Shown in pieces: positions 6,391 through 64,000 of a DNA stretch of 64,000 nucleotides (within the stretch, counting starts at the first letter, position 1; each line of letters begins with the position of its first letter). The position numbers were made by a program, and so were the translations under genes. Origin of the DNA: Candidatus Woesebacteria bacterium GW2011_GWF1_31_35 (GTDB lineage Bacteria; Patescibacteriota; Microgenomatia; UBA8517). The notes beneath the pieces were generated by a model. That model was not told the origin of the DNA, ran no database searches, and was given only the letters and a program-made list of their open reading frames with translations. Where the stretch lies: positions 273,564-337,563 of the forward strand of contig CP011214.1 in NCBI GenBank assembly GCA_001029755.1, written 5' to 3'.

Positions 6391-6760
6391 TGGTGGAGAT
6401 GGAGGGAATCGAACCCTCATCCGAAAAACTTAAAAACAAAACTTCTACAAGCTTATTTAGTTAATAATTTTTCCTTTAAATTTATCCAACTAACAGGAAT
6501 CTAAAGTAAGATTTAATTATCTTTTAAAAAATTTCTCTAAATCAAAAGAAATTAGTTAGCATCTCGAATTGGTTTACACCCAGTCAGTTCAGTCGAGAAC
6601 CAAACGTCAGGACGCTAATTAAGAATATGCCAAAGCATATTGGAAATTAGAAGCATAACTGTTAGGTTTTGCTTTTATTTTTTGATATCTTTTTACAAGT
6701 GTTTATCAAACTTGGCTTGCTGTTTTGTTAAAGAGCTTCCCGTCGAAACCGGTCATCCCC
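6391..6760 (-). ncRNA. ssrA: tmRNA (ssrA)
   Basis: Minus-strand 5' end GGGGATGACCGGTTTCGACGGG (canonical tmRNA start) at 6741-6760, and 3' tRNA-like end GGTTCGATTCCCTCCATCTCCACCA at 6391-6415. Lies directly downstream of smpB. Confidence 0.8.
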
Positions 6761-27248: not shown

Positions 27249-28412
27249 ATGTGGCTAACAGAAGAATTAAATAATCTAAAAAAATCAGGACTTTATAATA
27301 ATATTTTAACCATAGAAAGTCCTATTGGGGGAGAGATAATAATTGAAGGAAGGAAACTACTTAATTTTTGTTCTAATAACTATTTAGGTCTTGCAAATAA
27401 TCCTCGTCTTAAAAAAGCAGCAATCGCTGCAATTAATAAGTTTGGTGTTGGTCCTGCTGCAGTTAGAACAATTGCAGGAACTACTACTTTACATAAAAAA
27501 CTTGAAAAAGACTTGGCAAAGTTTAAAAAGTGTGAAGCTGTTCTTACCTTTCAAAGTGGTTTCATGGCAAATTTAGCTACAATTCCTGCTTTAGTTGGTG
27601 AAGGAGACTTGATTTTTTCGGATGAACTTAATCATGCCAGTATTATTGATGGTTGTAGAATCTCAAAAGCTACAGTTATTCGTTTTAAACACGCAGATAC
27701 TGTTGATTTAGAATCTTTACTTAAAAAAGCTTCTAAAAAAGTTAAGAAACTAGTAATTACTGATGGAGTATTTTCAATGGATGGAGATATTGCACCCTTA
27801 GATAAAATTTATAAAGTAACTTCAAAATATGGAGCACTTTTAATGGTTGATGATGCACATGGTGAGGGAGTATTAGGTAGAAATGGTAGAGGAATTGTTG
27901 ATCATTTTAATCTTCATGGAAAAGTTGATATTGAAGTTGGAACAATGAGTAAAGCCCTTGGAGTTGTTGGAGGTTTAGTTGCTGGTAAAGGTGAAATTAT
28001 AGAATGGTTAACCCAGCGCGCTAGACCATTTCTTTTTTCTTCAGCTATGACAATTCCTGATGTCGGAGCCTGTATTGAAGCTGTAAAAATTTTAGGAAGC
28101 TCCGGCGTCTTAGTTAAAAAACTTTGGAGTAATGCGGATTATTTAAGTAAAGGTTTAAGTAGATTTGGGTTTGATACAGGTAAAAGTCAAACTCCCATAA
28201 TTCCTTTAATGTTGGGGGAAGTTACTTTGGCAAAAGAATTTAGTAATTTACTTTTTGAAAACGGAGTATTTGCAAAAGCAATTGGCTATCCGACAGTTCC
28301 AGAAGGGAAAGCAAGAATTAGAATAATGAATACTGCGGTTCACACCAAAAAAGACCTTGATAAAGCTCTTTTGGTTTTTGAAAAAGTAGGTAAAACTTTA
28401 AAAGTAATTTAA
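27249..28412 (+). CDS. Pyridoxal-phosphate-dependent glycine C-acetyltransferase / 8-amino-7-oxononanoate synthase family enzyme (Kbl/BioF-like)
   Basis: 387 aa. [21 protein letters not shown]...[15 protein letters not shown] and the PLP-lysine region GTMSKALG. Confidence 0.7.
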
Positions 28413-29365
28413 CATCTTACATTAGCTCCACAATTCTGACAATTAGATATTAGTTGTCCAGATGGTCTTCTGTTAGTTGCACCACAACTTGGACAGGGAA
28501 ATTCTAAGGATCCATATTCATCTGAATATCCAAATGCAAGTGTTTGTGTTTCAGTATTTAGGCCATTTGTATTTAAAAGAGTGATATTTGATTTTCCACA
28601 TCCTGATTTTTCAAGATTCATTCCAAATCCTGCTTTTTCCATTTCTGTCTCAATATAGGCTCCATATTCAAATGGATTACTATAAATTACTGATAGGTTT
28701 TTCATAATTGGTTTATTTACAATAGTAGCTTTTTTTAAAGCTTTGGCTTTATTTTTGACAGCTGTTCCATCTAAAATACTTTGAAAAATTTCTTTTTCTG
28801 GTAATTTGATTATTTCAGACAGATAACTAAAAGGATCTTTCTCTGGTGGTATTTCTAATTTAATTACAATTGATTTTAAATCATCTAAATTTTGTGGAAA
28901 TAGATAATTATTTGAAGAAACAGATACAAGCAGTTGACCAAGTTTTAAACAATCATCTTTTGACAAAGTTGTACTTATTCCATAAGATTCAAAATATTCA
29001 AATTTTTTGCTTTTAGTAATTCTTTTTGCACCTATGTCAATTCTTGTTTCAGGCCAAGGATTTGGTGGACTAATCCAAACATAAGCAAAATTTTCGGTAT
29101 CTTCAAGAAGGAGTTTTCTTATTTCTTCACCAGCAGGAGTTAGAGGATCGTTTCTTACAAACATTTCTGAAACATCTCTTCTATCTATTCCTGGAGCAAT
29201 AACTTTATTTCTCTCTCTTTTTATATAATGATGTGGATTCACTCGTGGATTTCCAGTGTTTGAAGCTTCAATAACAAGAGAAGCTGTGTCATTATTTAAG
29301 GAAGCCAATTTCTGGGGAGTATCGTATCTTCTTAGATCTAGTGCAATAAATTGTTCTTTTGACAT
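28409..29365 (-). CDS. Hypothetical soluble protein with C-terminal double-CxxC zinc ribbon, preceded by a cobalamin-riboswitch-like leader
   Basis: 318 aa. C-terminus [28 protein letters not shown]. No other motif I recognise. Confidence 0.35.
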
Positions 29366-29445
29366 ATTTTCCTGCTCGGGTTTTAGTGGGTTCTGGGTTT
29401 ACAGTAGCGGCACTCCCACGGAATTTCACCGTGATTCACCAAATT
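29366..29445 (-). ncRNA. Candidate cobalamin (B12) riboswitch in the 5' leader of the 28409..29365 gene
   Basis: The minus-strand RNA reads GGUGAAAUUCCGUGGGAGUGCCGCUACUGUAAACCCAG...GAGCAGGAAAAUAUG. This matches the cobalamin-riboswitch core GGUGnAAnUCC...CCGCCACUGUAA (B12 box, one mismatch) and the 3' GCCAGGA-like element adjacent to the start codon. The segment is locally GC-rich. Confidence 0.45.
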
Positions 29446-29507
29446 TATTAACACATTACAGTTTATGTTACACTTTTTGTAAAGGGGTAATTTGAAATAA
29501 AAGGGGG

Positions 29508-50223: not shown

Positions 50224-53200
50224 ATGGTAAGACTTAAAAATAAAAAAATTAAAAAACAAATAAGTTTTGAAAGTTTTAAAGCTCCAACATACGAAAAGAT
50301 TAAAACTCTAATTAATAAAAAGATTGGTGCAAGACCTAGTATTCCTGATGATTTAGCAAAAGGGGATTGGACTGAACAAGCATTAAAAGTTTTAGAGGAA
50401 AGATATTTAATTAAAGATAACGATTTAAAACCAATAGAAACTCCTGAAGACATGCTTTGGAGAGTCTCTTGGGAAATTGCATCTTCAGAAGCAAGATGGG
50501 GAACTACTAAAAAAGATGTAGAAAAGATAGCACGAGATTTTTATGGTCTCATGGTTTCAAGAAAATTTTTACCAAATTCTCCAACCTTAATGAATGCTGG
50601 AACAAATAATGGTTTACAGTATTCTGCTTGTTTTGTTCTTCCAATAGAAGATTCAATGGAAGGAATTTTTGATGCTTTAAAATATCAAGCAATTATTCAT
50701 AAAACTGGAGGAGGAACAGGATTTGCATTTAGTCGATTAAGACAAAATGGATCGGTTGTTAAAACTTCAAGCGGTACTGCTTCAGGACCAATTTCTTTTA
50801 TGAGGATTTTTGATGCTGCAACAAATGAAGTTAAACAAGGGGGAAAAAGAAGAGGGGCTAATATGGGAATTTTGCGAGTTGATCATCCTGATGTATTGGA
50901 ATTTATTCATTGTAAAGAAGAGGGAGGTATTACTAATTTTAATATTTCGATTGCCTTAACTGATGCCTTTATGAAGGCTTATCAAAATGGAGAAAATTAT
51001 GACTTGATAAGTCCTAAAAACAAAGAAGTTGTTGGAAGCCTTTCTGCAAAGTTGGTTTTTGATGAGATTGCAGATGGAGCTTGGAGAACTGGAGATCCTG
51101 GTTTAATTTTTATTGATAAAATTAATAGTAGTACTGCTAATCCTGTACCATCAATTGGTGCAATTGAAGCTACTAATCCATGTGTAACAGGAAACACTTT
51201 GGTGTCTACAAACAGAGGATTAGTAAAAATTGAAAATCTTTACTTAGATAAAAGAAATACAAAAATTTTAACAGATAGTAGACTTTCAGATATTAAGTTT
51301 CAGATTCCTTCTAGGATTTTGCAGACAGGTAAAAAACAGGTTTACAAATTAACAACATTTGAGGGGTATGAATTAAGCCTTACAGGGAATCATAAAGTTT
51401 TAACTGAAAGAGGTTGGGTTGAAGCTTTAAAGTTGAGAGAAAATGACAAAATATTTATTTCTAATAGGAAGGGTAGTTTTGGTGTTGAAGGATCTCTGGA
51501 TGAAGGACAAATTATTGGATGGTTGGTTGGTGACGGAACAATGAAAAGGACTCAAGCGATTCTATCCTTTTTTGGTTACGAAAAACAGGAATTGGCACCA
51601 AAGTTTGCTCAAATGGTGGAACATTTAGTTGATGGAAAACAAATGTTAGCTAGGAATTATTCTGTTTCAGTAATTAATATTAATGACAGGGATGAAGCAA
51701 GAGTTCAATCTACAAGGTTAGCTAGATATATGAATGAAATTGGTATAGATAAAGATTCAAAATTAAAAGTTCCAGAAACAGTTTTGTTAGGAAACGAGGA
51801 GATGCAAAAAGGATTTTTGCAAGCATTATTTACCGCAGATGGTCATGTTGGTGGGAATGCAGAAAAAAGTGTCAGTGTGAGATTAACATCTATTTCAGAT
51901 TCATTATTAAAAGATGTACAGAGAATCCTTCTAAATTTTGGGATTGTAAGTAAAATTTACACAGAAAGAAGAAAAGAACAAAAAAGATTTTTACCAAATG
52001 GTCGTGGGGGATCTAAGGAATATTTGTGTAAATCATATAGTGACTTAGTAATTTCAAAATCATCTTTAAAAGTTTTTAAAGATAATATTGGTTTCTTGTC
52101 TGAATGTAAAAATATAAAACTTGTTACATTGTTAAATGAATACAAAGAAGGGCCTTATAAAGAAAATTTTATTGCTAGATTTAAAAAATTAATAAAAGAA
52201 GGCGTTGAAATGGTCTATGATTTAACTGAGCCATCTACGTCATCCTTTATAGCTAATGGTTTAGTTGTTCATAATTGTGGAGAACAGCCGTTATATCCAT
52301 TTGATGCCTGTAATTTAGGGAGCATATTTCTAACATATTTTATTAAAGATGGAGAAATTGATTGGGATGAACTAAAAAAAGTTACTAGAACCTCAGTTAG
52401 ATTTTTGGATAATGTAATTGAAGTTAATCCATATCCATTAGAGCAGATTAGAAAAACAGTCTTTGCAATAAGAAGAATTGGTTTAGGTATTGGAGGTTGG
52501 GCTGATATGCTTTTGGAACTTGGGATTCCATATGATTCAGAAGAAGCAATAACCCTAGCTGAAAAAATAATGAAGACTATTCAAGACGAAGCAGTTGAAG
52601 AAAATGAAAAATTAGCCAAAATTAGAGGAGCATTCCCACTTTTTAAGAGTTCAATCTATAAAAATGGAAAACCTAGAAGAAACTCAACCGTTACAACCAT
52701 TGCCCCAACTGGAACAATATCGATAATTGCAGGAGCATCATCAGGAATTGAACCACTTTTTGCAATTGCTTATCAACATATTGTTAAAGATAAACATTTA
52801 GATAGAAAGATGACATTTGTAAATCCTAAATTTGAAGAAGTTTCACGAAAAGAAGGTTTTTGGAGTAAAGAACTAATGGACAAAGTGGGAGAATTAGGAG
52901 TTATTCGTGGTATTAATGAAGTACCTCAAAAGATAAAAGATATTTTTGGTACAGCTCATGAGATTAATCCTGAATGGCATATAAAAACACAAGCAATTTT
53001 CCAAAAATATACAGAAAATGCTGTTAGTAAGACAATTAATTTAAAAAGTGATGCAACTGTTGATGATGTTAAAAAAGTATATCTTGACGCATGGAATGCA
53101 GAATGTAAGGGAATAACAGTTTTTAGAGATGGATGTAAAGATACTCAAGTTTTAAACCTTGGTATCAATAGTCAAAAGAAAGAAATTGAAAAAGAAGAAG

Positions 53201-53799
53201 AAAAATCTGAAGAGCCTTTAAGACATAGGCCATATGTTGTTAGAGGTTCAACATATAGGTTGTCAACTCCTGTTGGTACTGCTTTTATAACCATAAATGA
53301 AGATGAAGAAGGTCAACCCTTAGAAGTATTTATTAATGTAGGAAAAGCTGGTTCAGATGTTGCAGCAATGGCAGAAGCCTTGGGTAGAACAATTTCAACA
53401 ACCTTAAAATTTAGAGGAAATATATCAGCTAAAGAAAAGGCAAGAGAAATTGCAGAACAGTTAGCGGGGATTGGCGGGAGAAGATCAATCGGTTTTGGAC
53501 CTACTAAAATAAGGTCTCTTCCCGATGCTATAGCAGGAGCAATTTCAGTTCATTATAACTTTGGTATTAATGGATATCATAATAGTCCAAATATTTTTGG
53601 AGGAAATCAATCAAATGGAAATATTGTAAGTGAAGTAATTGCATCAGCACCACATGTTGAAGAAAAACAACAAGAGAGCCTCTTTTTGCAAGCATCTAAA
53701 GAAAAAGTGGGAGATATATGTCCATCTTGTGGAGCTTCTGCCTTAGTATTTGAAGAAGGTTGTAGTAAGTGTCATGCGTGTGGTCATTCTGAATGTTAA
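50224..53799 (+). CDS. nrdJ: Adenosylcobalamin-dependent ribonucleotide reductase (class II, NrdJ) interrupted by an intein
   Basis: 1191 aa. The extein active-site motif ATNPC|GEQPL is split by a 365-aa insertion. B12-dependent RNR features are present, including the C-terminal CPSCG...CSKCHACGHSEC. Confidence 0.85.
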   Translation: MVRLKNKKIKKQISFESFKAPTYEKIKTLINKKIGARPSIPDDLAKGDWTEQALKVLEERYLIKDNDLKPIETPEDMLWRVSWEIASSEARWGTTKKDVEKIARDFYGLMVSRKFLPNSPTLMNAGTNNGLQYSACFVLPIEDSMEGIFDALKYQAIIHKTGGGTGFAFSRLRQNGSVVKTSSGTASGPISFMRIFDAATNEVKQGGKRRGANMGILRVDHPDVLEFIHCKEEGGITNFNISIALTDAFMKAYQNGENYDLISPKNKEVVGSLSAKLVFDEIADGAWRTGDPGLIFIDKINSSTANPVPSIGAIEATNPCVTGNTLVSTNRGLVKIENLYLDKRNTKILTDSRLSDIKFQIPSRILQTGKKQVYKLTTFEGYELSLTGNHKVLTERGWVEALKLRENDKIFISNRKGSFGVEGSLDEGQIIGWLVGDGTMKRTQAILSFFGYEKQELAPKFAQMVEHLVDGKQMLARNYSVSVININDRDEARVQSTRLARYMNEIGIDKDSKLKVPETVLLGNEEMQKGFLQALFTADGHVGGNAEKSVSVRLTSISDSLLKDVQRILLNFGIVSKIYTERRKEQKRFLPNGRGGSKEYLCKSYSDLVISKSSLKVFKDNIGFLSECKNIKLVTLLNEYKEGPYKENFIARFKKLIKEGVEMVYDLTEPSTSSFIANGLVVHNCGEQPLYPFDACNLGSIFLTYFIKDGEIDWDELKKVTRTSVRFLDNVIEVNPYPLEQIRKTVFAIRRIGLGIGGWADMLLELGIPYDSEEAITLAEKIMKTIQDEAVEENEKLAKIRGAFPLFKSSIYKNGKPRRNSTVTTIAPTGTISIIAGASSGIEPLFAIAYQHIVKDKHLDRKMTFVNPKFEEVSRKEGFWSKELMDKVGELGVIRGINEVPQKIKDIFGTAHEINPEWHIKTQAIFQKYTENAVSKTINLKSDATVDDVKKVYLDAWNAECKGITVFRDGCKDTQVLNLGINSQKKEIEKEEEKSEEPLRHRPYVVRGSTYRLSTPVGTAFITINEDEEGQPLEVFINVGKAGSDVAAMAEALGRTISTTLKFRGNISAKEKAREIAEQLAGIGGRRSIGFGPTKIRSLPDAIAGAISVHYNFGINGYHNSPNIFGGNQSNGNIVSEVIASAPHVEEKQQESLFLQASKEKVGDICPSCGASALVFEEGCSKCHACGHSEC
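51181..52275 (+). mobile_element. Intein (365 aa) with LAGLIDADG homing-endonuclease domain inside NrdJ
   Basis: Starts with Cys (CVTGNTLVST), ends with VVHN followed by extein Cys (CGEQPL). Two LAGLIDADG motifs: IIGWLVGDGTM and FLQALFTADGHV. Inserted within the conserved NPC|GEQ catalytic motif of the RNR. Confidence 0.85.
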
Positions 53800-53812
53800 A
53801 TGTTAAAATATT

Positions 53813-54307
53813 TTGATATTCATGTCAGTTTATACACGAACAGGGGATAAAGGGAAAACAGGAACTTTTAATGGAAAAAGAATTTCCAAATCTTCAACAT
53901 TGATTAATACAATTGGTAGTTTAGATGAATTAAATTCATATTTAGGCATTATTGGGGGATTAACCGAAATTCAAAAAAATATATTTACAATAAATTCAAT
54001 TTTATCAGGAGCAAAACTTACTTTTCCAAAAACTGAAACTTTAAAGTTAGAAGAAGAAATTGATGCTATGGAGAAAAAACTTCCAGTTTTAGCTAGTTTT
54101 ATAATCTATGGAGGAACTTCAAAAGCATCCCAAATTTATTTTGCAAGAAGCCTTTGCCGTCGTGCAGAAAGATCATTGGTTAAGTTAGAAATTATGGACC
54201 AAAAATTAATAGTATTAGCTTATATAAATAGACTCTCAGATTATTTATTTACTTTAGCTCGTTTTACTAATTTTAGGAAAAAAGTTAAGGAAGGTACTTG
54301 GAAATAA
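53813..54307 (+). CDS. ATP:cob(I)alamin adenosyltransferase, PduO-type
   Basis: 164 aa. VYTRTGDKGKTGTFNGKRISKSSTLINTIGSLDELNSYLG matches the PduO-type N-terminus. Confidence 0.75.
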   Translation: MIFMSVYTRTGDKGKTGTFNGKRISKSSTLINTIGSLDELNSYLGIIGGLTEIQKNIFTINSILSGAKLTFPKTETLKLEEEIDAMEKKLPVLASFIIYGGTSKASQIYFARSLCRRAERSLVKLEIMDQKLIVLAYINRLSDYLFTLARFTNFRKKVKEGTWK

Positions 54308-54323
54308 TGCTACAATTAAAAGC

Positions 54324-54650
54324 ATGGGACTACTGCCTGAAAGAGAACCAATTAAAAAAAGTTATGAGAATCCTGACGAGGCTTCTCCTTTAAATATTGA
54401 AAGAAAAGAAGTTGTTTCTCCAGTTCTGACTCATTTTAAAGCTCAAGTTAAAAATGATAAAGGACAAAACTTGATCGAGACTCCTGAAGGAAGAAAGATG
54501 GAAATAAAGATTCCTGAAGATAGTAAAGAATCTTTGGAAGGAAAAATTAAAGGATCAAAAGATGAATCTTCAGCTTGGTCAGCCGGATATTGGTTAAGAA
54601 TAATAAAAAAAGCTATATACTTTGGATGGAAGGTGGTGTTTGATAAATGA
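54324..54650 (+). CDS. Hypothetical protein, start-stop coupled to the downstream ATPase
   Basis: 108 aa, acidic, with an amphipathic C-terminus. Confidence 0.2.
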   Translation: MGLLPEREPIKKSYENPDEASPLNIERKEVVSPVLTHFKAQVKNDKGQNLIETPEGRKMEIKIPEDSKESLEGKIKGSKDESSAWSAGYWLRIIKKAIYFGWKVVFDK

Positions 54651-56974
54651 TTGTTCCTGATTTAAATTCAATAATTTTATTTTTAATTTTAATTATCTTT
54701 TTGGTGTTTTTGATTGCCACTGTTAGTTATGTAGTCTTTGTTATTTTTAGGTTTAGAGGAAGGGAGGAAAAATCAGTTGATTCAGTATATTTACAAGTTT
54801 CAGTTCCACGACTAAACGAAACAAAGACTGATGCCATGGAACAACTCTTTTCATCTCTTTATTCGATGAAAAAAGGAGGTTGGAAACAAAAATTTTCAGT
54901 GCAACCATCCATTTCTTTTGAGATTATTGCCAAAGAAGAAGATATTAAATTTTATGTTTGGACACCTACAGAATATAAAGATTTGGTTGAAAAACAAATT
55001 CATGGTGCATATTCTGATGCTGAGATTATGGAGGTTCCTGAAGTTAATATCTTTGAAACTGATGGTAAAGTTTCCTATAAATCTTTACAGTTATCAAAAG
55101 CAAATTATTATCCATTAAAGACTTTTAAAGATTTACCAACTGATATTTTAGCCTCACTTACATCATCTCTTGCTAAATTAACAGAAGGTGAGGGGGCTGC
55201 AATTCAGATATTAATTTCACCGGCAGAATCTGAATGGCAAAAATCAGGTAGTAAATATATATCAGATACTAAAAAACAGGAAAGCAGTTCAGAAAGTGCC
55301 AAATATGCAGTTTCTGGTAAAGCCTTGGAAGCAATTGAAAATAAAGTAAGCAAAATAGGTTTTTTAACTTCGATTAGAATTGTTGTTACCTCAAAAACTA
55401 AAGAAATTGCCAAGATGAATCTTGATAATATTGTTTCTTCCTTAGGTCAAACATCTGGAGAATTTAATAATTTAGGCAGTAGAAAAATATACAATAAAGG
55501 TGGCTTCATGCAAGATTTCCTTTATAGGTACCAACCAATGTTTAATGTGTTTAAAAATCATATTTCAATTTTAAATTCTGAAGAGTTGGCAACCATTTTT
55601 CATTTTCCAAATAGACAAATTACAACACCACATATCCATTGGTTACACTCAAAAACTGCTCCAGCTCCAGCAGAGATTCCTGAAGAAGGAATTTATTTGG
55701 GTAAAAGTATTTATAGGGGAATGACAAGAAAGATTGCGATTGGGGATGAAGATAGAAGGCGCCATGTTTATATTATTGGAGCGACAGGTGTTGGAAAAAC
55801 AGAATTAATGAAAGGTATGATTATGCAGGATATAAATGCAGGACGTGGAGTTTGTTTTATGGATCCACATGGAGATGCTGTTGAAGATATCTTAAAACTT
55901 ATTCCACCAGAACGTGCTGAAGATGTTATTTATTTTAGACCATCAGATACAGAAAGACCAATGGGGTTAAATTTGATGGAAGCAAATACTGAGGATGAAA
56001 AACATTTTGTAGCCTCATCAATTATTAATATGATGTATAAACTTTTTGATCCTTATAAAACTGGAATTGTAGGACCCCGTTTTGAACATGCAGTTAGAAA
56101 TGCAATGCTTACTATCATGTGTGAAAAGGGTGCTACCTTTGTTGAACTAATGAGAGCCCTAACTGATGCAAGGTATGTCCAAGAATTACTTCCTAAGGTC
56201 ACAGACCCAATTATTAGACGCTACTGGACAGACCAGATAGCTCAGACTTCTGATTTTCATAAATCGGAAGTATTAGATTACATAACTTCCAAGTTTGGAA
56301 GATTTGTTACTAATAAAATGATCAGAAACATTATTGGTCAATCTGAATCTTCATTTTCGTTTAGAGATGTTATGGATAATGGAAAGATACTTCTTATTAA
56401 CCTTGCAAAAGGAGAATTGGGAGAAGAAAATTCTAATTTTTTAGGTTTAATATTAGTTCCTAGAATATTAATGGCAGCCATGAGTAGAAGTGATACTCCA
56501 GAAGAAAATAGACGTGATTTCTATTTTTATGCTGATGAGTTTCAAAACTTTGCAACACCTGATTTTGCAGTAATTTTGTCTGAGGCTAGAAAATATAGAT
56601 TAAATCTAACTGTTGCCAATCAGTTTATAGGCCAAATTGAAGAAGAAGTCAAAAATGCAGTCTTTGGAAATGTGGGTACAAAAGTTTCATTTAGAGTAGG
56701 CGTTACTGATGCTAATTATTTACAACATGAATTTACTCCAACTTTTGGTGAAGATGATTTATTAAATGTAGAAAGATATCATGCATATGTTAAAACAATT
56801 GTTCATAATCAGCCTCAAACTCCATTTTCAATTGATACAACAGTAGATAGAGCTAAAATTAAAGATATGGAAAATCCCAGAACTGCTGAAATAATTAAAG
56901 AAATGAGTAGATTAAAATATGGAAGAGATGCAAGACTTGTAGAAGCGGAAATCACTAGACGTGCAAAACTTTAA
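54647..56974 (+). CDS. T4SS-type AAA ATPase with N-terminal TM helix (VirD4/TraG coupling-protein-like; VirB4-like not excluded)
   Basis: 775 aa. N-terminal TM, Walker A IIGATGVGKTE, FMDPHGDAVEDIL (resembling the T4CP DPKGD region), Walker B FYFYADEFQNF. Confidence 0.45.
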   Translation: MIVPDLNSIILFLILIIFLVFLIATVSYVVFVIFRFRGREEKSVDSVYLQVSVPRLNETKTDAMEQLFSSLYSMKKGGWKQKFSVQPSISFEIIAKEEDIKFYVWTPTEYKDLVEKQIHGAYSDAEIMEVPEVNIFETDGKVSYKSLQLSKANYYPLKTFKDLPTDILASLTSSLAKLTEGEGAAIQILISPAESEWQKSGSKYISDTKKQESSSESAKYAVSGKALEAIENKVSKIGFLTSIRIVVTSKTKEIAKMNLDNIVSSLGQTSGEFNNLGSRKIYNKGGFMQDFLYRYQPMFNVFKNHISILNSEELATIFHFPNRQITTPHIHWLHSKTAPAPAEIPEEGIYLGKSIYRGMTRKIAIGDEDRRRHVYIIGATGVGKTELMKGMIMQDINAGRGVCFMDPHGDAVEDILKLIPPERAEDVIYFRPSDTERPMGLNLMEANTEDEKHFVASSIINMMYKLFDPYKTGIVGPRFEHAVRNAMLTIMCEKGATFVELMRALTDARYVQELLPKVTDPIIRRYWTDQIAQTSDFHKSEVLDYITSKFGRFVTNKMIRNIIGQSESSFSFRDVMDNGKILLINLAKGELGEENSNFLGLILVPRILMAAMSRSDTPEENRRDFYFYADEFQNFATPDFAVILSEARKYRLNLTVANQFIGQIEEEVKNAVFGNVGTKVSFRVGVTDANYLQHEFTPTFGEDDLLNVERYHAYVKTIVHNQPQTPFSIDTTVDRAKIKDMENPRTAEIIKEMSRLKYGRDARLVEAEITRRAKL

Positions 56975-56996
56975 ATGATATCCTTCAATAGTTTAT

Positions 56997-57875
56997 ATGA
57001 ATAAACCAAACTCGATTACAAATAAAATTGGAATTATCGGTTGGGGATTTGTGGGGGAGGCAACTGGAGTGGGTTTTTCGAAAAATAAACAAAATAAAAT
57101 TTTTTGGTTTGATAAATTTAAGGAAAGCCCAAACACTTTTGATGAAGTGATAGAAAATTCTGAATATATTTTTATTTGTGTTCCAACCCCAATGTTTAGA
57201 GATTATTCTGGGATGGATATATCAATTGTTAAGGGAGTGGTTGAAACAATTGCTAGTAAAGTTATAAATACTTCAAAAGTAATAATTATCAAATCAACTG
57301 TTCTTCCTGGAACAACCTTTGAATTTGCCAAAAAATATCCAAATGTAAATTTTGCCATGAATCCCGAGTTTTTAACTCAAAATAAAGCAAAGGAAGATTT
57401 TTTAAATCCTGCTAGAACTGTTGTTGGTGTTACCAAAAAAGAAGTTGGAGAAAGAATTAAAAAACTTTATTCAAGTATACTTCCAAAAGATCAGCCATAT
57501 TTTATTACTGATTTAGTTTCAGCAGAACTTATTAAATATATGAGTAATGTAACTTTAGCTTCAAAGGTGCTGCTTGCAAATGAATTCTATGAACTTGCAA
57601 ATAAAATTGGTGCAAATTATGAGGAAGTTTATAAAGCAGTAGAAGCGGATCCTAGAATTGGTAAACATTTAAGGGTTCCAGGTCCAGACGGAGATTTAGG
57701 ATTTGGGGGAGCTTGTTTTCCAAAAGATACTTTAGGACTTTTATCTTTTGCAAAAAATAATAAAGTTGATATGAGTGCCCTTGACGCTATTTGGAAGAAA
57801 AACTTAAAAATTAGAAAAGTAAGAGATTGGGAACATATGGATAATGCTTTTGGTAGGGGAGCTTCAAAAAAGTAA
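56997..57875 (+). CDS. UDP-glucose/GDP-mannose dehydrogenase-family protein, short form
   Basis: 292 aa. N-terminal GIIGWGFVGEATG Rossmann fold and catalytic-Cys motif GGACFPKD. Lacks the usual ~130-aa C-terminal domain. Confidence 0.6.
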   Translation: MNKPNSITNKIGIIGWGFVGEATGVGFSKNKQNKIFWFDKFKESPNTFDEVIENSEYIFICVPTPMFRDYSGMDISIVKGVVETIASKVINTSKVIIIKSTVLPGTTFEFAKKYPNVNFAMNPEFLTQNKAKEDFLNPARTVVGVTKKEVGERIKKLYSSILPKDQPYFITDLVSAELIKYMSNVTLASKVLLANEFYELANKIGANYEEVYKAVEADPRIGKHLRVPGPDGDLGFGGACFPKDTLGLLSFAKNNKVDMSALDAIWKKNLKIRKVRDWEHMDNAFGRGASKK

Positions 57876-57919
57876 TAATTTGACTTAGAAATTAATTTCT
57901 GTAATACTTATTCTAGTGT

Positions 57920-58603
57920 TTGATTATGACAAAATTTTTGGAAAGAAGCGAGGTAATTAAATTAAGACTTCAGGGTAAAAGTTATAGTGAAATAAAGCAA
58001 ATTGTGAATGTATCTAAAAGTTCATTAAGTTTATGGCTTAGAAATGTTCAACTTACAGAAAAACAAATCTCTGGATTAAAAGAGAAAAAAATAAGATCGG
58101 TTGAAAGATTTATTAAATCAATGAAAATAAAAAGACAGATTCGATTGGAAACATACTTAAATAATCAAAAACACAAATGGTTACCGCTTTCTGAAAGAGA
58201 AGAATTTATTGCTGGACTTTTTCTTTATTCAGGAGAGGGAAATAAAGTAAGTTCAAATAGTATTTCGATATCAAATACTGACCCATCTGTTATTAAATTT
58301 TCGTACTATTGGATGCAAAATTGTTTACTAATTCCGAGAGAAAAAATATTTTTAAAATTACATCTATATGATGACATGAATATTGAGGAAGAAACAAATT
58401 TTTGGTCCAAAGAAATAGGAATAGATAAAAAACAATTTAAGCGACCATACATAAAAAAATCTTCAAGAATTGATATCGATCAAAAGGGATATGGTCATGG
58501 AACTTGTGGAGTTTGGGCATTCAAAACAGAGATAAAAGAAAATATACTTATGGCTCTAATGGCAATTTTAAATCATTATGCTTCTAAAATGACTCGACTT
58601 TGA
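57920..58603 (+). CDS. HTH + single-motif LAGLIDADG-like endonuclease-family protein, immediately upstream of tRNA-Ile(UAU)
   Basis: 227 aa. HTH (GKSYSEIKQIVNVSKSSLSLWLRNV) plus EEFIAGLFLYSGEGNK motif. Paralog of 7964..8638 and 10390..10803 (shared NFW, KQFK, YGxGTC motifs). Stop is 15 nt before the tRNA. Confidence 0.4.
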   Translation: MIMTKFLERSEVIKLRLQGKSYSEIKQIVNVSKSSLSLWLRNVQLTEKQISGLKEKKIRSVERFIKSMKIKRQIRLETYLNNQKHKWLPLSEREEFIAGLFLYSGEGNKVSSNSISISNTDPSVIKFSYYWMQNCLLIPREKIFLKLHLYDDMNIEEETNFWSKEIGIDKKQFKRPYIKKSSRIDIDQKGYGHGTCGVWAFKTEIKENILMALMAILNHYASKMTRL

Positions 58604-58618
58604 TATAATCATTAAATT

Positions 58619-58691
58619 GGCTCGGTAACTCAGTGGTCAGAGTGCCAACCTTATAAGTTGGAAGTCGATGGTCCGATCCCATCCCGAGCCA
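58619..58691 (+). tRNA. tRNA-Ile (anticodon TAT / UAU)
   Basis: 73 nt. Acceptor GGCTCGG/CCGAGCC, D arm ACTC-AGTGGTCA-GAGT, anticodon stem CCAAC/GTTGG with loop CTTATAA, T arm GATGG-TCCGATC-CCATC. No encoded CCA. A TATAAT box lies at 58603-58608. Confidence 0.65.
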
Positions 58692-58709
58692 CTAAATTAT
58701 TATTAACCA

Positions 58710-58898
58710 ATGGATAAAAATACAAAACTTCTAGAATTAATAAAGAAAAGAGATGACTATAAAGAGAAACTTACTCAGATGTATAAATATTTTCATGGAG
58801 TAAAACACGAAAGCGCTCATTCTGAACTACAATACTCTGAAATTAAAGTATATGAGGACATGTTAAATTCTGTTGTGGAAGAGATAAATAATTTATAA
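58710..58898 (+). CDS. Hypothetical small protein
   Basis: 62 aa, predicted helical. Confidence 0.2.
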   Translation: MDKNTKLLELIKKRDDYKEKLTQMYKYFHGVKHESAHSELQYSEIKVYEDMLNSVVEEINNL

Positions 58899-58899
58899 A

Positions 58900-59130
58900 T
58901 TAATTTTTATCGGGATTTGAGAAATTGTTGATTGCTTTTATAATTGCATTAAATGCATTTTGATGATCTGTCCATTCATCAAATGACATTGGGCCAGTAC
59001 ATTCTGTGAGAGGGGGGCGATTCTCGAAATTGTCTAGATATTCTTGATAATCAACACGAGATTGTATTAGTGCATTAAAATCTGGTAAATCACTTTTTTC
59101 TCCTTGATTTTGTAATATATCTTTTCTCAC
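58900..59130 (-). CDS. Hypothetical small protein
   Basis: 76 aa, directly downstream of the recombinase gene on the minus strand. Confidence 0.2.
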   Translation of the reverse strand: MRKDILQNQGEKSDLPDFNALIQSRVDYQEYLDNFENRPPLTECTGPMSFDEWTDHQNAFNAIIKAINNFSNPDKN

Positions 59131-59135
59131 TATGG

Positions 59136-59999
59136 TTATAGCTCAATTAAAGACTGTTTTTTACTTGATTCTGTAGTTCCTGCAAGTTCAATATATCTTT
59201 CTGTGGTTGAAAGTCTTTTATGTCCTGCAACTTGAGAAATTAAAATTAAATCAACTCCATTTTTAATGTTTTCTACAATAAATGTGGTTCTTAAATCGTT
59301 TACAGAATATTTTGGAAGTTCTGCTTTTTGAATAAATCTGTCAACTGATGCTCTTATATTTCTAACTGCAAGTGGTTTTCCGGTCTTACTGATAAAAATA
59401 TATTCGGAAACCACTTTTGGTCTTTCAATCATATACTTTTCAATTGCTTCTTTTGCTGGTTTATTTAAAGGAATTGTTCTTTCAGGTTGTGTTGCATAGC
59501 CCTCAATCTTTATAGTTTCTTCATTAATATCAGCAGTTTTAATATTAGCTACTTCTGAAATTCTTAAACCAGTTTGAAGTATTAATTCAATCATTGCAGA
59601 TATTCTAGGATCATTTCTTACAGCATCTCTTAAAGCTCTATACTCTAAAGGAGTTAAAAACTTAGGCATTGAAGCCTCCACCTTAGGATGAGATACACTT
59701 TTAGATAAATCAGTTGAAAGATAGTTTTGTTCTACCATCCATCTAAAGAATGTTTTAACAGCATTTAATTTTCTAGAAACTGATTTTGGTGTATATTTTT
59801 CAGAAAGTAGGGTATCTCTAAATGAATCTAAATTAGAAAGTTTAACTTGGTCTGGAGTTGCAATACTACCTTTAGTCAAAAATTCCACTAATTGCTCAAG
59901 ATCAGATCTATACGCTAAAATCGTGGCTGGAGACCTACCTTTTTCAGCCAAACTTGCCATGAATTTTGGCAATAAACTTTTAATTGTATCCTGTGTCAT
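59136..59999 (-). CDS. Tyrosine site-specific recombinase (XerC/XerD-like)
   Basis: 287 aa. N-terminal SAM-like domain and a C-terminal catalytic region with R...HxxR...Y (GHKRLSTTERYIE). Confidence 0.75.
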   Translation of the reverse strand: MTQDTIKSLLPKFMASLAEKGRSPATILAYRSDLEQLVEFLTKGSIATPDQVKLSNLDSFRDTLLSEKYTPKSVSRKLNAVKTFFRWMVEQNYLSTDLSKSVSHPKVEASMPKFLTPLEYRALRDAVRNDPRISAMIELILQTGLRISEVANIKTADINEETIKIEGYATQPERTIPLNKPAKEAIEKYMIERPKVVSEYIFISKTGKPLAVRNIRASVDRFIQKAELPKYSVNDLRTTFIVENIKNGVDLILISQVAGHKRLSTTERYIELAGTTESSKKQSLIEL

Positions 60000-60055
60000 A
60001 ATATAAATACCTTAGGCTTGGGGCAAAACTTTCAAGTCTAAGTCATAATTATACA

Positions 60056-60424
60056 GTGAATAAAAAATTAGTCAACATTATAGGTTTCCTAGTTTTATTA
60101 ATACTTTCAGTTGTTTTAGTCTCATCTTTTTTCAAAAGTATCAAAAGAATTAGAGAAGGTGACGCAATAATTGAAAAAACAAAGGTAAAACTTGAAAAAT
60201 TAAATGAAGAAAATAAAAAACTAGAAGAACAACTTAAAATTACTCAAAGTGAAGAATTTGTAGAAAAACAACTTCGAAATAAACTAGGTCTTGCTAAAGA
60301 AGGGGAGATTGTCCTAGTCTTACCAGACAATGAAACATTAAAAAAATTAGCTCCAGTAATCCCAGATGAAGAAGAAGTAACATTAAAACCTAATTGGAAG
60401 AAATGGATTGATCTATTTAAATGA
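60056..60424 (+). CDS. FtsB/DivIC-like septum-formation initiator
   Basis: 122 aa. N-terminal TM, coiled coil, and EFVEKQLRNKLGLAKEGEIVLVLPD motif. Confidence 0.5.
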   Translation: MNKKLVNIIGFLVLLILSVVLVSSFFKSIKRIREGDAIIEKTKVKLEKLNEENKKLEEQLKITQSEEFVEKQLRNKLGLAKEGEIVLVLPDNETLKKLAPVIPDEEEVTLKPNWKKWIDLFK

Positions 60425-60432
60425 CTCCCTTG

Positions 60433-60692
60433 TTGCGGAGCTGGGAGTTGAACCCAGCCTGCGAGATTATGCTGTTCTGTAATCTCCAATTACTTGGAGT
60501 GCCGGACTATATCTTCATCCTATTTTTAGGAGCTCGGCGTGTAGTCTCTAGGGGGTCATTTTTAGACTTCCCTCGGGATTGACCTTTTAAAAAAAAGGCG
60601 TTCCCCGATATAGCCAAGTTTCACTTTTAACATTACTATTAAAGTGGCCCAATTTTAGTTAAGCCTCGCGTGCAGCCGTACACTACCCCGCA
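60433..60692 (-). tRNA. tRNA (anticodon CAT; Met or Ile2 type) interrupted by a group I intron in the anticodon loop
   Basis: Minus-strand 5' exon TGCGGGGTAGTGTACGGCTGCACGCGAGGCT (60662-60692) and 3' exon CATAATCTCGCAGGCTGGGTTCAACTCCCAGCTCCGCAA (60433-60471). These reconstitute acceptor TGCGGGG/CTCCGCA, anticodon stem CGAGG/TCTCG, loop CT|CATAA and T arm CTGGG-TTCAACT-CCCAG. The exact splice junctions are inferred. Confidence 0.55.
60472..60661 (-). mobile_element. Group I intron (about 190 nt) within the tRNA(CAU) gene
   Basis: The minus-strand sequence carries group I core elements: an R-like AGAGACTACA, an exact S element AAGATATAGTCC (GACTA/TAGTC form P7), a P-like AAATTGGGCC, a Q-like AATCCCGAGG, and a terminal G. 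It is locally GC-rich. No ORF inside. Confidence 0.6.
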
Positions 60693-60749
60693 TATAAAAA
60701 CGTTGTTATTATAACATATGAGTTAATAATTTGGTAAAATACCAAGTAC

Positions 60750-60823
60750 GGCAGGGTAGCTCAGTTGGTTAGAGCACTGGATTCATATCCCAGAGGTCGT
60801 GGGTTCGATCCCCACCCCTGCTA
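60750..60823 (+). tRNA. tRNA-Met-type (anticodon CAT), intronless
   Basis: 74 nt. D arm GCTC-AGTTGGTTA-GAGC, anticodon loop TTCATAT, T arm GTGGG-TTCGATC-CCCAC, acceptor GGCAGGG/CCCTGCT (G1·U72 wobble). Confidence 0.75.
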
Positions 60824-60832
60824 CTTAATTAG

Positions 60833-60861
60833 ATCCGCCACAATTTGGCGGATTTTTTGTT
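60833..60861 (+). terminator. Rho-independent terminator after the tRNA(CAU) gene
   Basis: ATCCGCCA-CAATT-TGGCGGAT hairpin followed by TTTTTTGTT. Confidence 0.6.
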
Positions 60862-60873
60862 AGAATAGAAGAT

Positions 60874-61854
60874 ATGAAAAGAGTTTTGTCAGGAATTAGA
60901 GCAACAGGCAGGCTTCATTTGGGAAATTACCTTGGGGCGGTTCTTGGTATGCTTGAATTACAAGAAAGAAATGATCTTGAAACTTTATATATGGTTGCTG
61001 ATCTACATACTTTAACAACACCATATGACAAAAATGAATTAAAAAACAATGTTAGAAATGTAGTTTTAGATTATTTAGCAGCAGGTTTGGATCCTTTAAA
61101 ATCAACTATTTTTATACAGTCACAGGTTCCAGAACACACAGAACTATTTTATTTATTTTCAACTGTTGTGTCTTTAGCTCGCATGATGCACCTTCCAACA
61201 TATAAAGATAAATTAAAACAGTATCCAAATGCTTCAACTGTTGCTCTTCTTAATTATCCTGTATTAATGGCTGCTGATATTTTAATTTATAAAGCAAGTT
61301 TAGTTCCTGTAGGGATTGATCAAGAACCTCACCTAGAAGTTTCAAGGGAAATTGCCAGGAAAATGAATGAAATTTATAAAACAGATTTTCCAGAACCAAT
61401 TAGATTTGCAACAAAAGGAGAATATGTACCATCTTTAACAGGGGAGGGGAAAATGAGCAAGTCAGTCGAAGGAAGTTATATAAATTTAACAGATGATTTA
61501 GAAACTATTAAGAAAAGATTGGCAGGAGCACCAACAGATTCTGGAGTAGGTAAAAAGATTCCAGAAACTGGAGGAGTAGCTAATTTACTTAAATTTGTTG
61601 AGTTATTTGAGGATATAGAAAAACGCAAAAAATACGAATTAAGTTATCTTAGTGATGGAATTAAATACTCAGAACTTAAAGAAGAATTAGCAGATGCAAT
61701 TTATAAAAAATTACTACCAATTCAAGAAAAAAGAAAACAATTTGAAGAAGATCCGAGAGAAGTAGATGGAATAATTAAAGAAGGTGCAGAAAAAGCAAGA
61801 AAAATTGCAGGTGATACATTAAAAGAAATAAAAGAAAAGATGGGATTGTTATGA
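60874..61854 (+). CDS. trpS: Tryptophanyl-tRNA synthetase
   Basis: 326 aa. HIGH-type motif (TGRLHLGNY) and KMSKS. Confidence 0.9.
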   Translation: MKRVLSGIRATGRLHLGNYLGAVLGMLELQERNDLETLYMVADLHTLTTPYDKNELKNNVRNVVLDYLAAGLDPLKSTIFIQSQVPEHTELFYLFSTVVSLARMMHLPTYKDKLKQYPNASTVALLNYPVLMAADILIYKASLVPVGIDQEPHLEVSREIARKMNEIYKTDFPEPIRFATKGEYVPSLTGEGKMSKSVEGSYINLTDDLETIKKRLAGAPTDSGVGKKIPETGGVANLLKFVELFEDIEKRKKYELSYLSDGIKYSELKEELADAIYKKLLPIQEKRKQFEEDPREVDGIIKEGAEKARKIAGDTLKEIKEKMGLL

Positions 61855-62198
61855 TAAATTTCGAAGAATTTCAAAATGTTGACATAAGAGTTGGAACTAT
61901 TCTTTCTGCTGAGGTTCCAGAATGGAGTCATTGGGTTATTAGATTAAAAGTTGATTTAGGAGAAGAATTGGGTGAAAAAACTGCATTTTCGGGCATAATG
62001 AAGTTTTATAAGCCAGAAGATTTAATAGGAAAACAATTTCCATTTGTAGTTAATCTTGAACCTAAAAAGATTGGACCTGAAAATGAATTTTCAGAAGTTA
62101 TGATGATAATGGCGACTCCTGGAGAAGACGATAATGAAGTTGCCCCCGTTCTTTTCAAACTTTCTAAAAAAGTACCAAATGGTACAAAAGTAAGATAG
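61851..62198 (+). CDS. tRNA-binding domain protein (CsaA/Myf/EMAP-like OB fold)
   Basis: 115 aa. FQNVDIRVGTILSAE...FSGI. Start overlaps the trpS stop. Confidence 0.6.
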   Translation: MINFEEFQNVDIRVGTILSAEVPEWSHWVIRLKVDLGEELGEKTAFSGIMKFYKPEDLIGKQFPFVVNLEPKKIGPENEFSEVMMIMATPGEDDNEVAPVLFKLSKKVPNGTKVR

Positions 62199-62199
62199 A

Positions 62200-64000
62200 A
62201 TGTATAATTTGCAAAGTATGAAACCTTTAGAAAATAATAATATGAAACTTACTGGAAACGGTAAAAAAACTAACAAGAAACAGGTAATGGTTAAACTAAA
62301 AATTAATATCTGGACTGTTGTTTTTGGAATTCTTTTACTATTTTTTTTCCTTCCACCTATTTTTTCCCTTCTTGGCATTGGTTCTCCTGTTAGTACAAAA
62401 ATTGATTTATCAGTTGCTTTAAACGATATAAAAAATGAAAAGGTTGAAAAGGTTGTTATTGAAAAAGATAACATCCTATTGACTTATAAAGATGGAAAAA
62501 ACCTAACAGCAGTTAAAGAAGAGGGGGAAAGTTTTGCAGATTTGCTTCAAAAATCAGAAATTGATCCTACAAAAATAAATTTTTCAATAACAGATCAAAC
62601 TTTAGCTAAAGCTTTAGCTGAAATTTTAGGAATTGTACTTCCAATTATTCTTTTAGGTGGACTATTTCTTTATATGATGAAATCTCAAACTAAAGGTGCA
62701 CAAGATATTTTCTCCTTTGGTAGAAGTAAAGCAAAGATCTTTGCAAAAGGAAAACAAAGTATAACTTTTGCAGATGTTGCAGGAGTTGATGAAGCTAAAA
62801 AAGAATTGGTTGAAGTAGTTGATTTTTTGAAAAATCCTGAAAAATATAGAAAAATTGGAGCAAGAACACCAAAGGGAGTTTTATTATTCGGTCCGAGTGG
62901 TGTGGGAAAATGTGTAATTGGTGATTCATTAGTGTCGACTTCTAAGGGTCTTTTGGAGATTAGAGATATTCCAAAATATTTTTCGGTTGAAGAAAACGGA
63001 TTTGTTCATGGGGCGACGTTGTCTTCGTTTGATTTCTCTAATTCTATCGATACTATTGCAAAGGCGTCACATTGGTACGATTTAGGTATATCAGATACCT
63101 TAAAACTTCAGACTTATATGGGACATGAAATAGAAGGAACACTAGAACATCCGTTGGTATTTATAAATGATCAAGGAAAGTTAGAATTCAAAAGGTTAGA
63201 TCAAGCTAAAGTTGGTGATTGGATACCAGTAAAAACAAACAATCAGATGTTTGGTAATTATAAAGTGTTGGATACAAAAACAAGTTACTTATTGGGTTTA
63301 CTCACTGGTGACGGGGGAATGTCGATTAAGGATAGAATTTATTTTTCGACAGCAGATAAAGAATTATTATTATTTTTTAAAACATATTTTAAAAACAAAT
63401 TTGAATATTCAATCAAGAAAGCTAATAGTAAATATGATTATTATATAAGCTCTTCAAATATTAAGTCCGAAATTACACATTATGGAATGGACGAATCTTA
63501 TTCACGAAATAAAAAAATTCCAGATCAGATAATGTTATCTCCGAAAGAAAATGTAGTTGCCTTTTTACAAGGGTTATTCGATACAGACGGTTCTGTATAT
63601 AAAACTGGAAAAGTAGAATATTCAACGAGCAGTAAAAAACTAGCCAGGCAAGTAAGTGCTTTATTATTAAATTTAGGAGTGATGCATAAATTTAGAGAAA
63701 AAGGCGATAATCAATATTCGAGTTCATATGTTATTTTAATTTCAGGAACCAGTTTAATTAATTTTACTGAACAAATTGGTTTTAGATTGAAAAGAAAGCA
63801 AGATAAATTGGATTTATATCTTTCAAAAATTAAATTAAGGACGAATGTTGATTTATTTCCATTACAGGGACCTCGAATTAAAAAAATATGGAGGTATTTA
63901 GTTGAGAATGGTAAAAAACCGTCTAAGTTTGTTGACGAAAACTTTCATAAACAGATTTGTAGATACGCTGATAATGGTCGAAGACCATCTAGAGAAAGTT
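62200..64000 (+). CDS. ftsH: ATP-dependent zinc metalloprotease FtsH (5' partial), interrupted by an intein in the Walker A motif; continues past the window end
   Basis: Not in the ORF track because there is no stop inside the window. Translation from 62200 gives an N-terminal TM, a periplasmic domain, a second TM, then FADVAGVDEAKKELVEVVDFLKNPEKYRKIGARTPKGVLLFGPSGVGK, followed directly by CVIGDSLVSTSKGLLEI, an intein. Confidence 0.75.
   Translation, partial: MYNLQSMKPLENNNMKLTGNGKKTNKKQVMVKLKINIWTVVFGILLLFFFLPPIFSLLGIGSPVSTKIDLSVALNDIKNEKVEKVVIEKDNILLTYKDGKNLTAVKEEGESFADLLQKSEIDPTKINFSITDQTLAKALAEILGIVLPIILLGGLFLYMMKSQTKGAQDIFSFGRSKAKIFAKGKQSITFADVAGVDEAKKELVEVVDFLKNPEKYRKIGARTPKGVLLFGPSGVGKCVIGDSLVSTSKGLLEIRDIPKYFSVEENGFVHGATLSSFDFSNSIDTIAKASHWYDLGISDTLKLQTYMGHEIEGTLEHPLVFINDQGKLEFKRLDQAKVGDWIPVKTNNQMFGNYKVLDTKTSYLLGLLTGDGGMSIKDRIYFSTADKELLLFFKTYFKNKFEYSIKKANSKYDYYISSSNIKSEITHYGMDESYSRNKKIPDQIMLSPKENVVAFLQGLFDTDGSVYKTGKVEYSTSSKKLARQVSALLLNLGVMHKFREKGDNQYSSSYVILISGTSLINFTEQIGFRLKRKQDKLDLYLSKIKLRTNVDLFPLQGPRIKKIWRYLVENGKKPSKFVDENFHKQICRYADNGRRPSRES
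62911..64000 (+). mobile_element. Intein (partial, continues beyond window) with LAGLIDADG endonuclease domain inside the FtsH P-loop
   Basis: Begins with Cys right after GPSGVGK. The N-terminal splicing block (CVIGDSLVST) resembles that of the NrdJ intein (CVTGNTLVST). LAGLIDADG motifs LLGLLTGDGGM and FLQGLFDTDGSV. Confidence 0.75.

Follow-up and report, generated by a model that had tools for sequence, protein, structure and literature searches.

We describe here an intein in the ftsH gene of Candidatus Woesebacteria bacterium GW2011_GWF1_31_35, located at the right-hand end of a 64,000-nucleotide (nt) stretch of contig CP011214.1 (positions 273,564 to 337,563; hereafter the window). The feature is real and is a canonical P-loop intein; its host gene is undescribed as such but evidently common, and its mechanism is not new. 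The coordinates of the gene, the intein, and the other features of the window are collected in Table 1.

The interrupted ftsH gene

Translation of positions 62200 to 63999 of the plus strand gives 600 stop-free codons, beginning with an ATG at 62200 that lies one base past the stop codon of an upstream open reading frame (ORF) of 115 amino acids (aa) with a tRNA-binding domain. An earlier note, made from the letters of the window, had read FtsH as far as VLLFGPSGVGK and then straight into CVIGDSLVSTSKGLLEI..., with the LAGLIDADG endonuclease motifs LLGLLTGDGGM and FLQGLFDTDGSV further on, and had placed the insertion inside the P-loop, between GK and the expected Thr or Ser. Translation bears out the reading (the Lys is residue 237), and alignment with intein-less orthologues places the insertion at GK/T (slashes mark splice junctions). 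The note was also right about why the gene is absent from the ORF list for the window, which omits ORFs running off the window end.

Profile searches of the ORF placed FtsH_ext (PF06480) at aa 38-124 (E = 2e-8) and the FtsH_fam equivalog TIGR01241 at aa 64-240 (E = 9e-39); truncation and interruption of the gene are the only reason why the latter stays under its whole-protein cut-off. The first intein residue, Cys238 (position 62911), directly follows GPSGVGK. From there TIGR01445 (intein_Nterm) covers aa 238-320 above its cut-off, and LAGLIDADG_3 (PF14528) matches two stretches (E = 3e-25). An NCBIfam RFC model (NF003157) spans the P-loop extein and the intein together (aa 222-560, E = 1e-27).

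The downstream half of the gene was found on a locus, here called L001, of contig Ga0209518_1000001 (754,755 bp) in JGI metagenome 3300025030; it was reached through the exact protein identity of the 115-aa tRNA-binding ORF. The full-length window FtsH was absent from the protein-search matches, the best of which was 61% identical. Positions 1-12150 of L001 equal window positions 51851-64000 with 100% identity over 12,150 nt; L001 is thus either the sequence that the window came from or one identical to it. The full ftsH ORF lies at 10350-13559 of L001 and encodes 1069 aa. Within it the intein has 430 aa (1290 nt) and ends in ...FIANGFISHN, read at the junction as VYDFTVPKTHSFIANGFISHN/T or, with more of the flank, as ...THSFIANGFISHN/TLLAKAVAGEA. 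The FtsH frame then resumes (TLLAKAVAGEANVPFFS..., also TLLAKAVAGEANVPFFSMAGSEF...), and the C-extein carries TLLAKAVAGEA, Walker B, AAA, AAA_lid_3, and Peptidase_M41 with HEAGH before its stop codon. The earlier note had expected the downstream sequence to hold an intein C-terminus followed by LLAKA, or else, in a pseudogene or a misassembly, no return to the FtsH frame; L001 holds the former.

A decayed ftsH, or an assembly chimera of its 5' part with foreign intein-like DNA, in which the frame never returns, had been compatible with the window alone, which has neither the C-terminal splicing blocks nor the rest of FtsH, and exact-match DNA scans with the last 40-59 nt of the window found no match in two contig collections (genome and metagenome). 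Against such an origin, L001 continues the window identically and restores the 1069-aa ORF, the GK/C...HN/T architecture recurs at 76 other loci in assemblies made independently, and the C-extein protein is 97% identical to intein-less orthologues. We regard its probability as negligible.

The window and L001 together give the host the order expected of FtsH, with a transmembrane helix, a periplasmic domain, a second transmembrane helix, an AAA domain, and an M41 peptidase with its HEXXH motif. The insertion has the block A Cys, the block B TxxH, and blocks F and G with the terminal His-Asn, followed by Thr+1, of a class-1 Hint intein, two LAGLIDADG motifs with a catalytic acidic residue each, and an insertion site of the P-loop class (GPSGVGK/C...N/TLLAKA). 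We are highly confident in reading it as a canonical class-1 intein, complete at 430 aa, that contains a nested LAGLIDADG endonuclease of the two-motif type and a helical accessory domain, lies in-frame between Lys237 and the following Thr of ftsH, and is predicted to splice and home. The reading draws on this anatomy and the intact downstream gene, as well as on the alleles without an intein, the conserved catalytic residues, and the predicted fold of a close homologue, all presented below.

Table 1. Features of the ftsH intein and of the remainder of the window (window coordinates).
Feature	Position	Strand	Basis or remark
ftsH ORF, 5' 1800 nt of 3210-nt gene (1069 codons)	62200..64000	+	Open frame; 1409 nt more past the window end
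N-extein, aa 1-237: transmembrane helix, periplasmic FtsH_ext, second transmembrane helix, AAA start	62200..62910	+	PF06480, TIGR01241
Walker A codons GPSGVGK, intein directly after the Lys codon	62890..62910	+	Alignment with intein-less orthologues
Patch of synonymous differences beside the junction, 9-11/30 nt versus closest intein-less alleles	62881..62910	+	
Intein, first 363/430 residues	62911..64000	+	TIGR01445, PF14890, PF14528; full intein at L001 11061-12350, window-equivalent 62911-64200
Splicing block A (CVIGDSLVSTSKG), Cys1 as first nucleophile	62911..62949	+	C1 invariant in 77/77
Splicing block B, GTLEHP (TxxH)	63136..63153	+	T77, H80 invariant in 77/77
LAGLIDADG motif 1, LLGLLTGDG, catalytic Asp134	63289..63315	+	G133, D134 invariant in 77/77; PF14528
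LAGLIDADG motif 2, LQGLFDTDG, catalytic Asp226	63565..63591	+	D224, D226 invariant in 77/77; PF14528 at ORF aa 452-527
Putative helical accessory domain, start (intein residues ~296-394), runs past the window	63796..64000	+	Model of P0001 intein; TliVMA layout
NrdJ ORF, class II ribonucleotide reductase	50224-53799	+	
NrdJ intein, 365 aa, LAGLIDADG (ORF aa 320-684)	51181-52275	+	...ATNP/CVTG...VVHN/CGEQ, Cys+1; complete in the window
tmRNA gene	6391-6760	-	Tag peptide AKPNSYASNFQYALAYS
ORF downstream of riboswitch	28409-29365	-	
AdoCbl-II riboswitch	29380-29454	-	Just upstream of the preceding ORF
UDP-glucose dehydrogenase-like ORF	56997-57875	+	
227-aa ORF	57920-58603	+	Weak HTH_23
tRNA-Ile(TAT)	58619-58692		
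XerC/D-type integrase	59136-59999	-	
tRNA gene with group I intron	60433-60691	-	Rfam match (RF00028) at 60483-60671
tRNA-Met(CAT)	60750-60824	+	

Empty alleles and the insertion site

When 11 FtsH proteins with the intein were aligned with 4 that are without it, the insertion fell exactly at GK/T, with no host residue lost or gained. The closest intein-less FtsH proteins (P0013, P0017, and P0018) have exteins 97% identical at the protein level and read GPSGVGK-TLLAKA; P0017 comes from a Candidatus Woesebacteria metagenome-assembled genome (MAG; GCA_030645715.1). Once spliced, the FtsH studied here is predicted to have 639 aa, the same as P0013. The empty loci L002/L005 and L004 are syntenic with the L001 ftsH locus and share with it the gene order integrase, DivIC, TrpRS, tRNA_bind, FtsH, VTT-domain protein, and 5'-3' exonuclease, so that the intein is present sporadically, with empty alleles in close relatives.

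With the intein removed, the L001 exteins align to the empty alleles without gaps over 1902 nt. The empty-site flanks of L002 and L004 read ...GGTCCGTCTGGTGTTGGTAAA/ACATTACTTGCTAAAGCTGTTGCG..., and those of L001 without its intein read ...GGTCCGAGTGGTGTGGGAAAA/ACTTTGCTTGCCAAAGCT.... Nucleotide identity between L001 and the alleles L002 and L004 is 0.96-0.98 from -300 to -60 relative to the junction, 0.63-0.70 in the last 30 nt before the intein, 0.80-0.83 over the first 30 nt of the C-extein (5-6 further differences, outside the window), and 0.97 from +30 to +60. All of the differences in the junction flanks are synonymous. The 60 nt centered on the junction hold 14 differences from L002 and 17 from L004, against backgrounds of 4.2 and 3.3 per 60 nt, respectively, and the count versus L004 is the maximum for the whole gene. 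Since L002 and L004 differ from each other at only 3 nt of this interval, the patch can be assigned to the lineage that carries the intein. Such a trace is expected of co-conversion during homing from a diverged donor, and the patch is suggestive of that process.

The established class-1 intein pathway provides a mechanism. The 1069-aa precursor would be translated and its N-terminal part would enter the membrane. The intein would be cytoplasmic, like the AAA domain, because it is located after the second transmembrane helix, and the precursor would be unable to bind ATP normally because 430 residues split its P-loop. Splicing would begin with an N-S acyl shift at Lys237-Cys238 (Cys1) and proceed by transesterification, in which the hydroxyl of Thr+1 attacks. 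Asn430 would then cyclize, assisted by His429, and an O-N shift would regenerate GPSGVGK-TLLAKA (GPSGVGKTLLAKA), yielding a normal 639-aa FtsH. The freed intein would cut intein-less ftsH alleles at the sequence coding for the P-loop, and repair from the intein-bearing copy would bring in the intein and a few dozen flanking bases. Homing of this kind would account for the scattered occurrence of the intein among near-identical relatives as well as for the synonymous differences clustered at the junction.

Conservation, spread, and relatives of the intein

One genome per GTDB species was searched with an intein-only alignment, which gave 492 relatives confirmed by tblastn, and the best 80 loci were kept. 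Inteins with complete junctions were taken from 75 of these loci and from L001 and L003, making a set of 77. In this set the N-extein reads P[KR]G..L.G..G.GK, Cys is the first intein residue, and the HN end leads into T[LM][LI][AS][KR], which marks the host as FtsH. Thr+1 was required by the extraction pattern, and a filter of at least 380 aa was applied. Residues C1, T77, H80, D134, D226, K296, D412, H419, H429, and N430 are invariant in 77/77, and conservation of the endonuclease core is similar to that of the N-terminal splicing region. The inteins of this set are 425-436 aa long, with no mini-inteins (0/77, given the 380-aa filter); shorter FtsH inteins of 392-403 aa were seen among the protein clusters.

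The intein of P0001, which is 63% identical to the window intein, was modeled with AlphaFold2 (predicted local distance difference test score, 90.6; predicted template modeling score, 0.91). The model has the alpha-beta-beta-alpha-beta-beta-alpha fold nested in a Hint domain, with helices at 296-394 and then strands at 397-431. Its best PDB matches by Foldseek are TliVMA (7qss; E = 6e-25, TM-score 0.73) and 1dq3 (E = 1e-24, TM-score 0.67), with further matches to PI-PkoII, PI-SceI, and I-DmoI. The best PDB match to the FtsH intein by sequence is also 1dq3 (E = 4e-10). Judged from the model, the helical stretch at about residues 296-394, located between the endonuclease core and the strands of the C-terminal splicing part, corresponds to an accessory domain as in TliVMA.

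Among the first 132 proteins fetched, at least 33 protein clusters have the same FtsH insertion with complete junctions, and so do 75 further GTDB species-representative genomes among the best 80 of the 492 relatives. The hosts include many Microgenomates and Parcubacteria lineages. Outside the candidate phyla radiation (CPR), the insertion is found in two complete Pyrinomonadaceae (Acidobacteriota) chromosomes of 4.3-4.5 Mb, and further intein-bearing ftsH records are titled Omnitrophota and Planctomycetia. In an exhaustive HMMER search, 186 cluster representatives reached E <= 1e-30, a number that rose to 9660 when the limit was relaxed to E <= 1e-3; the host was checked for the six longest top matches and is FtsH in three. 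A word-indexed intein-only search gave 14 matches, missed known FtsH inteins, and was unfit for counting. Several 'binchicken' MAG loci on small contigs (L009, L012, L017, L030, and others), titled Gammaproteobacteria, Pseudomonadales, or Saccharibacteria, carry FtsH with inteins that share 60-67% identity with that of Woesebacteria. Their labels look unreliable, and the case for occurrence outside the CPR is made by the two Pyrinomonadaceae chromosomes.

A second insertion site is occupied in one of these three, the metagenomic FtsH P0134 (1499 aa), where a 453-aa intein (SVTGDTPVLI...LLHN) precedes TNRPD, the AAA+ sensor-1 region. Another of the three, P0135 (1494 aa), has an insertion of about 520 aa that starts much like that of P0134, with VTGDTPVLIK, and is probably a second intein as well. 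With the sensor-1 intein of P0134, FtsH has at least two intein insertion sites.

The earlier note had not known FtsH as a common intein host and had thought the site possibly unusual. The first part agrees with the literature searched: of the publications naming both FtsH and intein, judged mostly by their titles and abstracts, none appears to describe an FtsH intein, and FtsH does not appear in either the main text or the top-15 host tables of a 2015 intein survey (PMC4760082), whose supplementary tables might list rarer hosts. Searches for inteins together with CPR or Patescibacteria, or for FtsH together with protein splicing, found nothing relevant and no intein survey of the groups in which the allele is widespread, the CPR and some Acidobacteriota. 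We know of no FtsH entry in InBase. The second part does not stand, as GK/T is a classic hotspot and the same insertion is present in the 75 further genomes.

An intein that splices while its endonuclease is immobile, the element being fixed vertically or kept for some benefit to the host, such as a conditional switch that holds the ATPase of FtsH off until splicing, would fit the identical site across many CPR classes and Acidobacteriota, the very uniform size, and the equal GC content of intein and N-extein (0.30 each). P-loop inteins necessarily inactivate their precursor, and environment-dependent splicing is reported for the P-loop RadA intein (PMC4513877). However, the closest relatives, at 97% extein identity, are without the intein, the synonymous patch is confined to the junction, neither the two catalytic Asp residues nor K296 vary in any of the 77 inteins, as selection for nuclease activity predicts, and no sequence feature points to a specific sensor. 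We consider an immobile element unlikely, and the homing endonuclease is probably active.

Several points nevertheless weigh against an intein that both splices and homes. Splicing and DNA cleavage are predicted from sequence and homology. Both the final 67 residues of the intein and the entire C-extein lie beyond the window and are known from L001, a public sequence identical to the window where the two overlap. A uniformly full-size endonuclease across distant phyla also fits vertical persistence or a role beneficial to the host. Mismatches between ftsH alleles are generally over-dispersed, with other 60-nt bins at 10-16 differences, and when a donor of the patch was sought among the closest intein-bearing alleles (L010, L009, L017, and L003), none was closer in the patch than in the rest of the gene. 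Because of this over-dispersion and the lack of a donor match, the patch is suggestive of co-conversion and not proof of it.

The window contains a second intein, in NrdJ, and the earlier note had proposed from the likeness of their N-terminal splicing blocks that related inteins had colonized two essential genes. The motif CVTGNTLVST is indeed present in NrdJ and is identical to CVIGDSLVST of the FtsH intein at 7/10 positions, and BLASTP aligns the two inteins with E = 5e-19 (73.6 bits). The proposed kinship, with one element recently spread within the genome, did not hold up: identity is only 26% over 340 aa, and the block A likeness does not single out the NrdJ intein because it is close to the FtsH-intein family consensus (CVTGDSxVxTNKGL). 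On a hidden Markov model built from the 77 FtsH inteins, a score of 128 bits places the NrdJ intein under 10 of 11 other inteins (159-348 bits), which come from a phage P-loop protein, PhoH, MetK, and terminase. Its +1 residue is Cys, and its site (NP/CGE) is unrelated to the P-loop. The NrdJ intein falls outside the lineage of the FtsH inteins, and a recent common origin of the two is very improbable.

The highest scores on the same model belong to the P-loop inteins of phage proteins of phrog_15503 (318-348 bits; junctions RGYGK/C...HN/T), and PhoH inteins (GPAGTGK/C...HN/S) score 204-252 bits. The nearest relatives found outside FtsH are thus, by sequence, in other P-loops, which fits the view of the P-loop as an intein hotspot (PMC4760082) and the proposed transfer of inteins between the P-loops of unrelated proteins (PMC10710043). 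Conceivably, FtsH P-loop inteins are among the most widespread intein alleles in the CPR and belong to a clade that hops between the P-loops of nonhomologous ATPases (FtsH, PhoH, and phage packaging or P-loop proteins), perhaps with phages as carriers, or they are retained as a post-translational gate on FtsH in reduced genomes; we offer these ideas as speculation with a low probability of being correct. The phage terminase-like protein P0133 (1844 aa; Terminase_6C) has three LAGLIDADG inteins, of which the first ranks with the top matches of the FtsH intein, at 332 bits and 33% identity.

Other window features and known systems

A group I intron (RF00028; 89 bits, E = 2e-21) lies inside a tRNA gene that ARAGORN did not call. 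In-silico removal of the intron leaves a 71-nt tRNA with the anticodon CAT (a shift of the splice site by one base would make it TAT), and the gene adjoins a separate tRNA-Met(CAT) gene. The UDP-glucose dehydrogenase-like ORF is without about the first 68 positions of the NAD-binding profile and the entire C-terminal domain. It is followed by the 227-aa ORF, in which a very weak Hom_end match (E = 0.09) includes the motif GLFLYSGEGNK, and then by tRNA-Ile(TAT) and the integrase. The region 56997-58603 possibly represents either a disrupted gene accompanied by a free-standing endonuclease-like ORF or the scar of an integration event. In L002, an ORF is called at the same position relative to the integrase as the 227-aa ORF. 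A tmRNA gene and an AdoCbl-II riboswitch complete the set of features in Table 1.

Automatic annotation calls proteins of this kind, 1040-1070 aa long, FtsH or AAA family ATPase, and an ftsH gene at the edge of a contig or window is missed or looks broken; recognizing the intein averts false pseudogene calls. The near-identical, syntenic Woesebacteria with and without the intein, together with the patch, form a natural pair for tests of homing and co-conversion. With the FtsH intein, the known hosts of P-loop inteins come to include an AAA+ protease that is anchored in the membrane and usually essential.

Among known systems, the RFC-a, MCM/CDC21-a, DnaB-b, VMA-b, and PhoH inteins sit at the same point after the Walker A Lys and are likewise class-1 inteins with a nested LAGLIDADG endonuclease (for the GK/T sites DnaB-b, MCM-a, and RFC-a, see PMC4760082; for the P-loop site VMA-b, see PMC8966425). 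They differ from the FtsH intein in sequence (about 30-35% identity) and in that its host is a membrane-anchored AAA+ protease. TliVMA (7qss) is a P-loop intein laid out as HINT, endonuclease, and accessory domain, the last of which is structurally diverse among such inteins (PMC8966425). Together with PI-PfuI (1dq3), it is the best structural match to the model of the P0001 homologue; both are 20-23% identical, archaeal, and thermophilic, and they have different hosts. The closest comparison is with the intein-less Woesebacteria FtsH proteins P0017, P0013, and P0018, which are orthologous and lie in the same neighborhood, whereas their genes are without the 1290-nt insertion and differ at the insertion point by the synonymous cluster.

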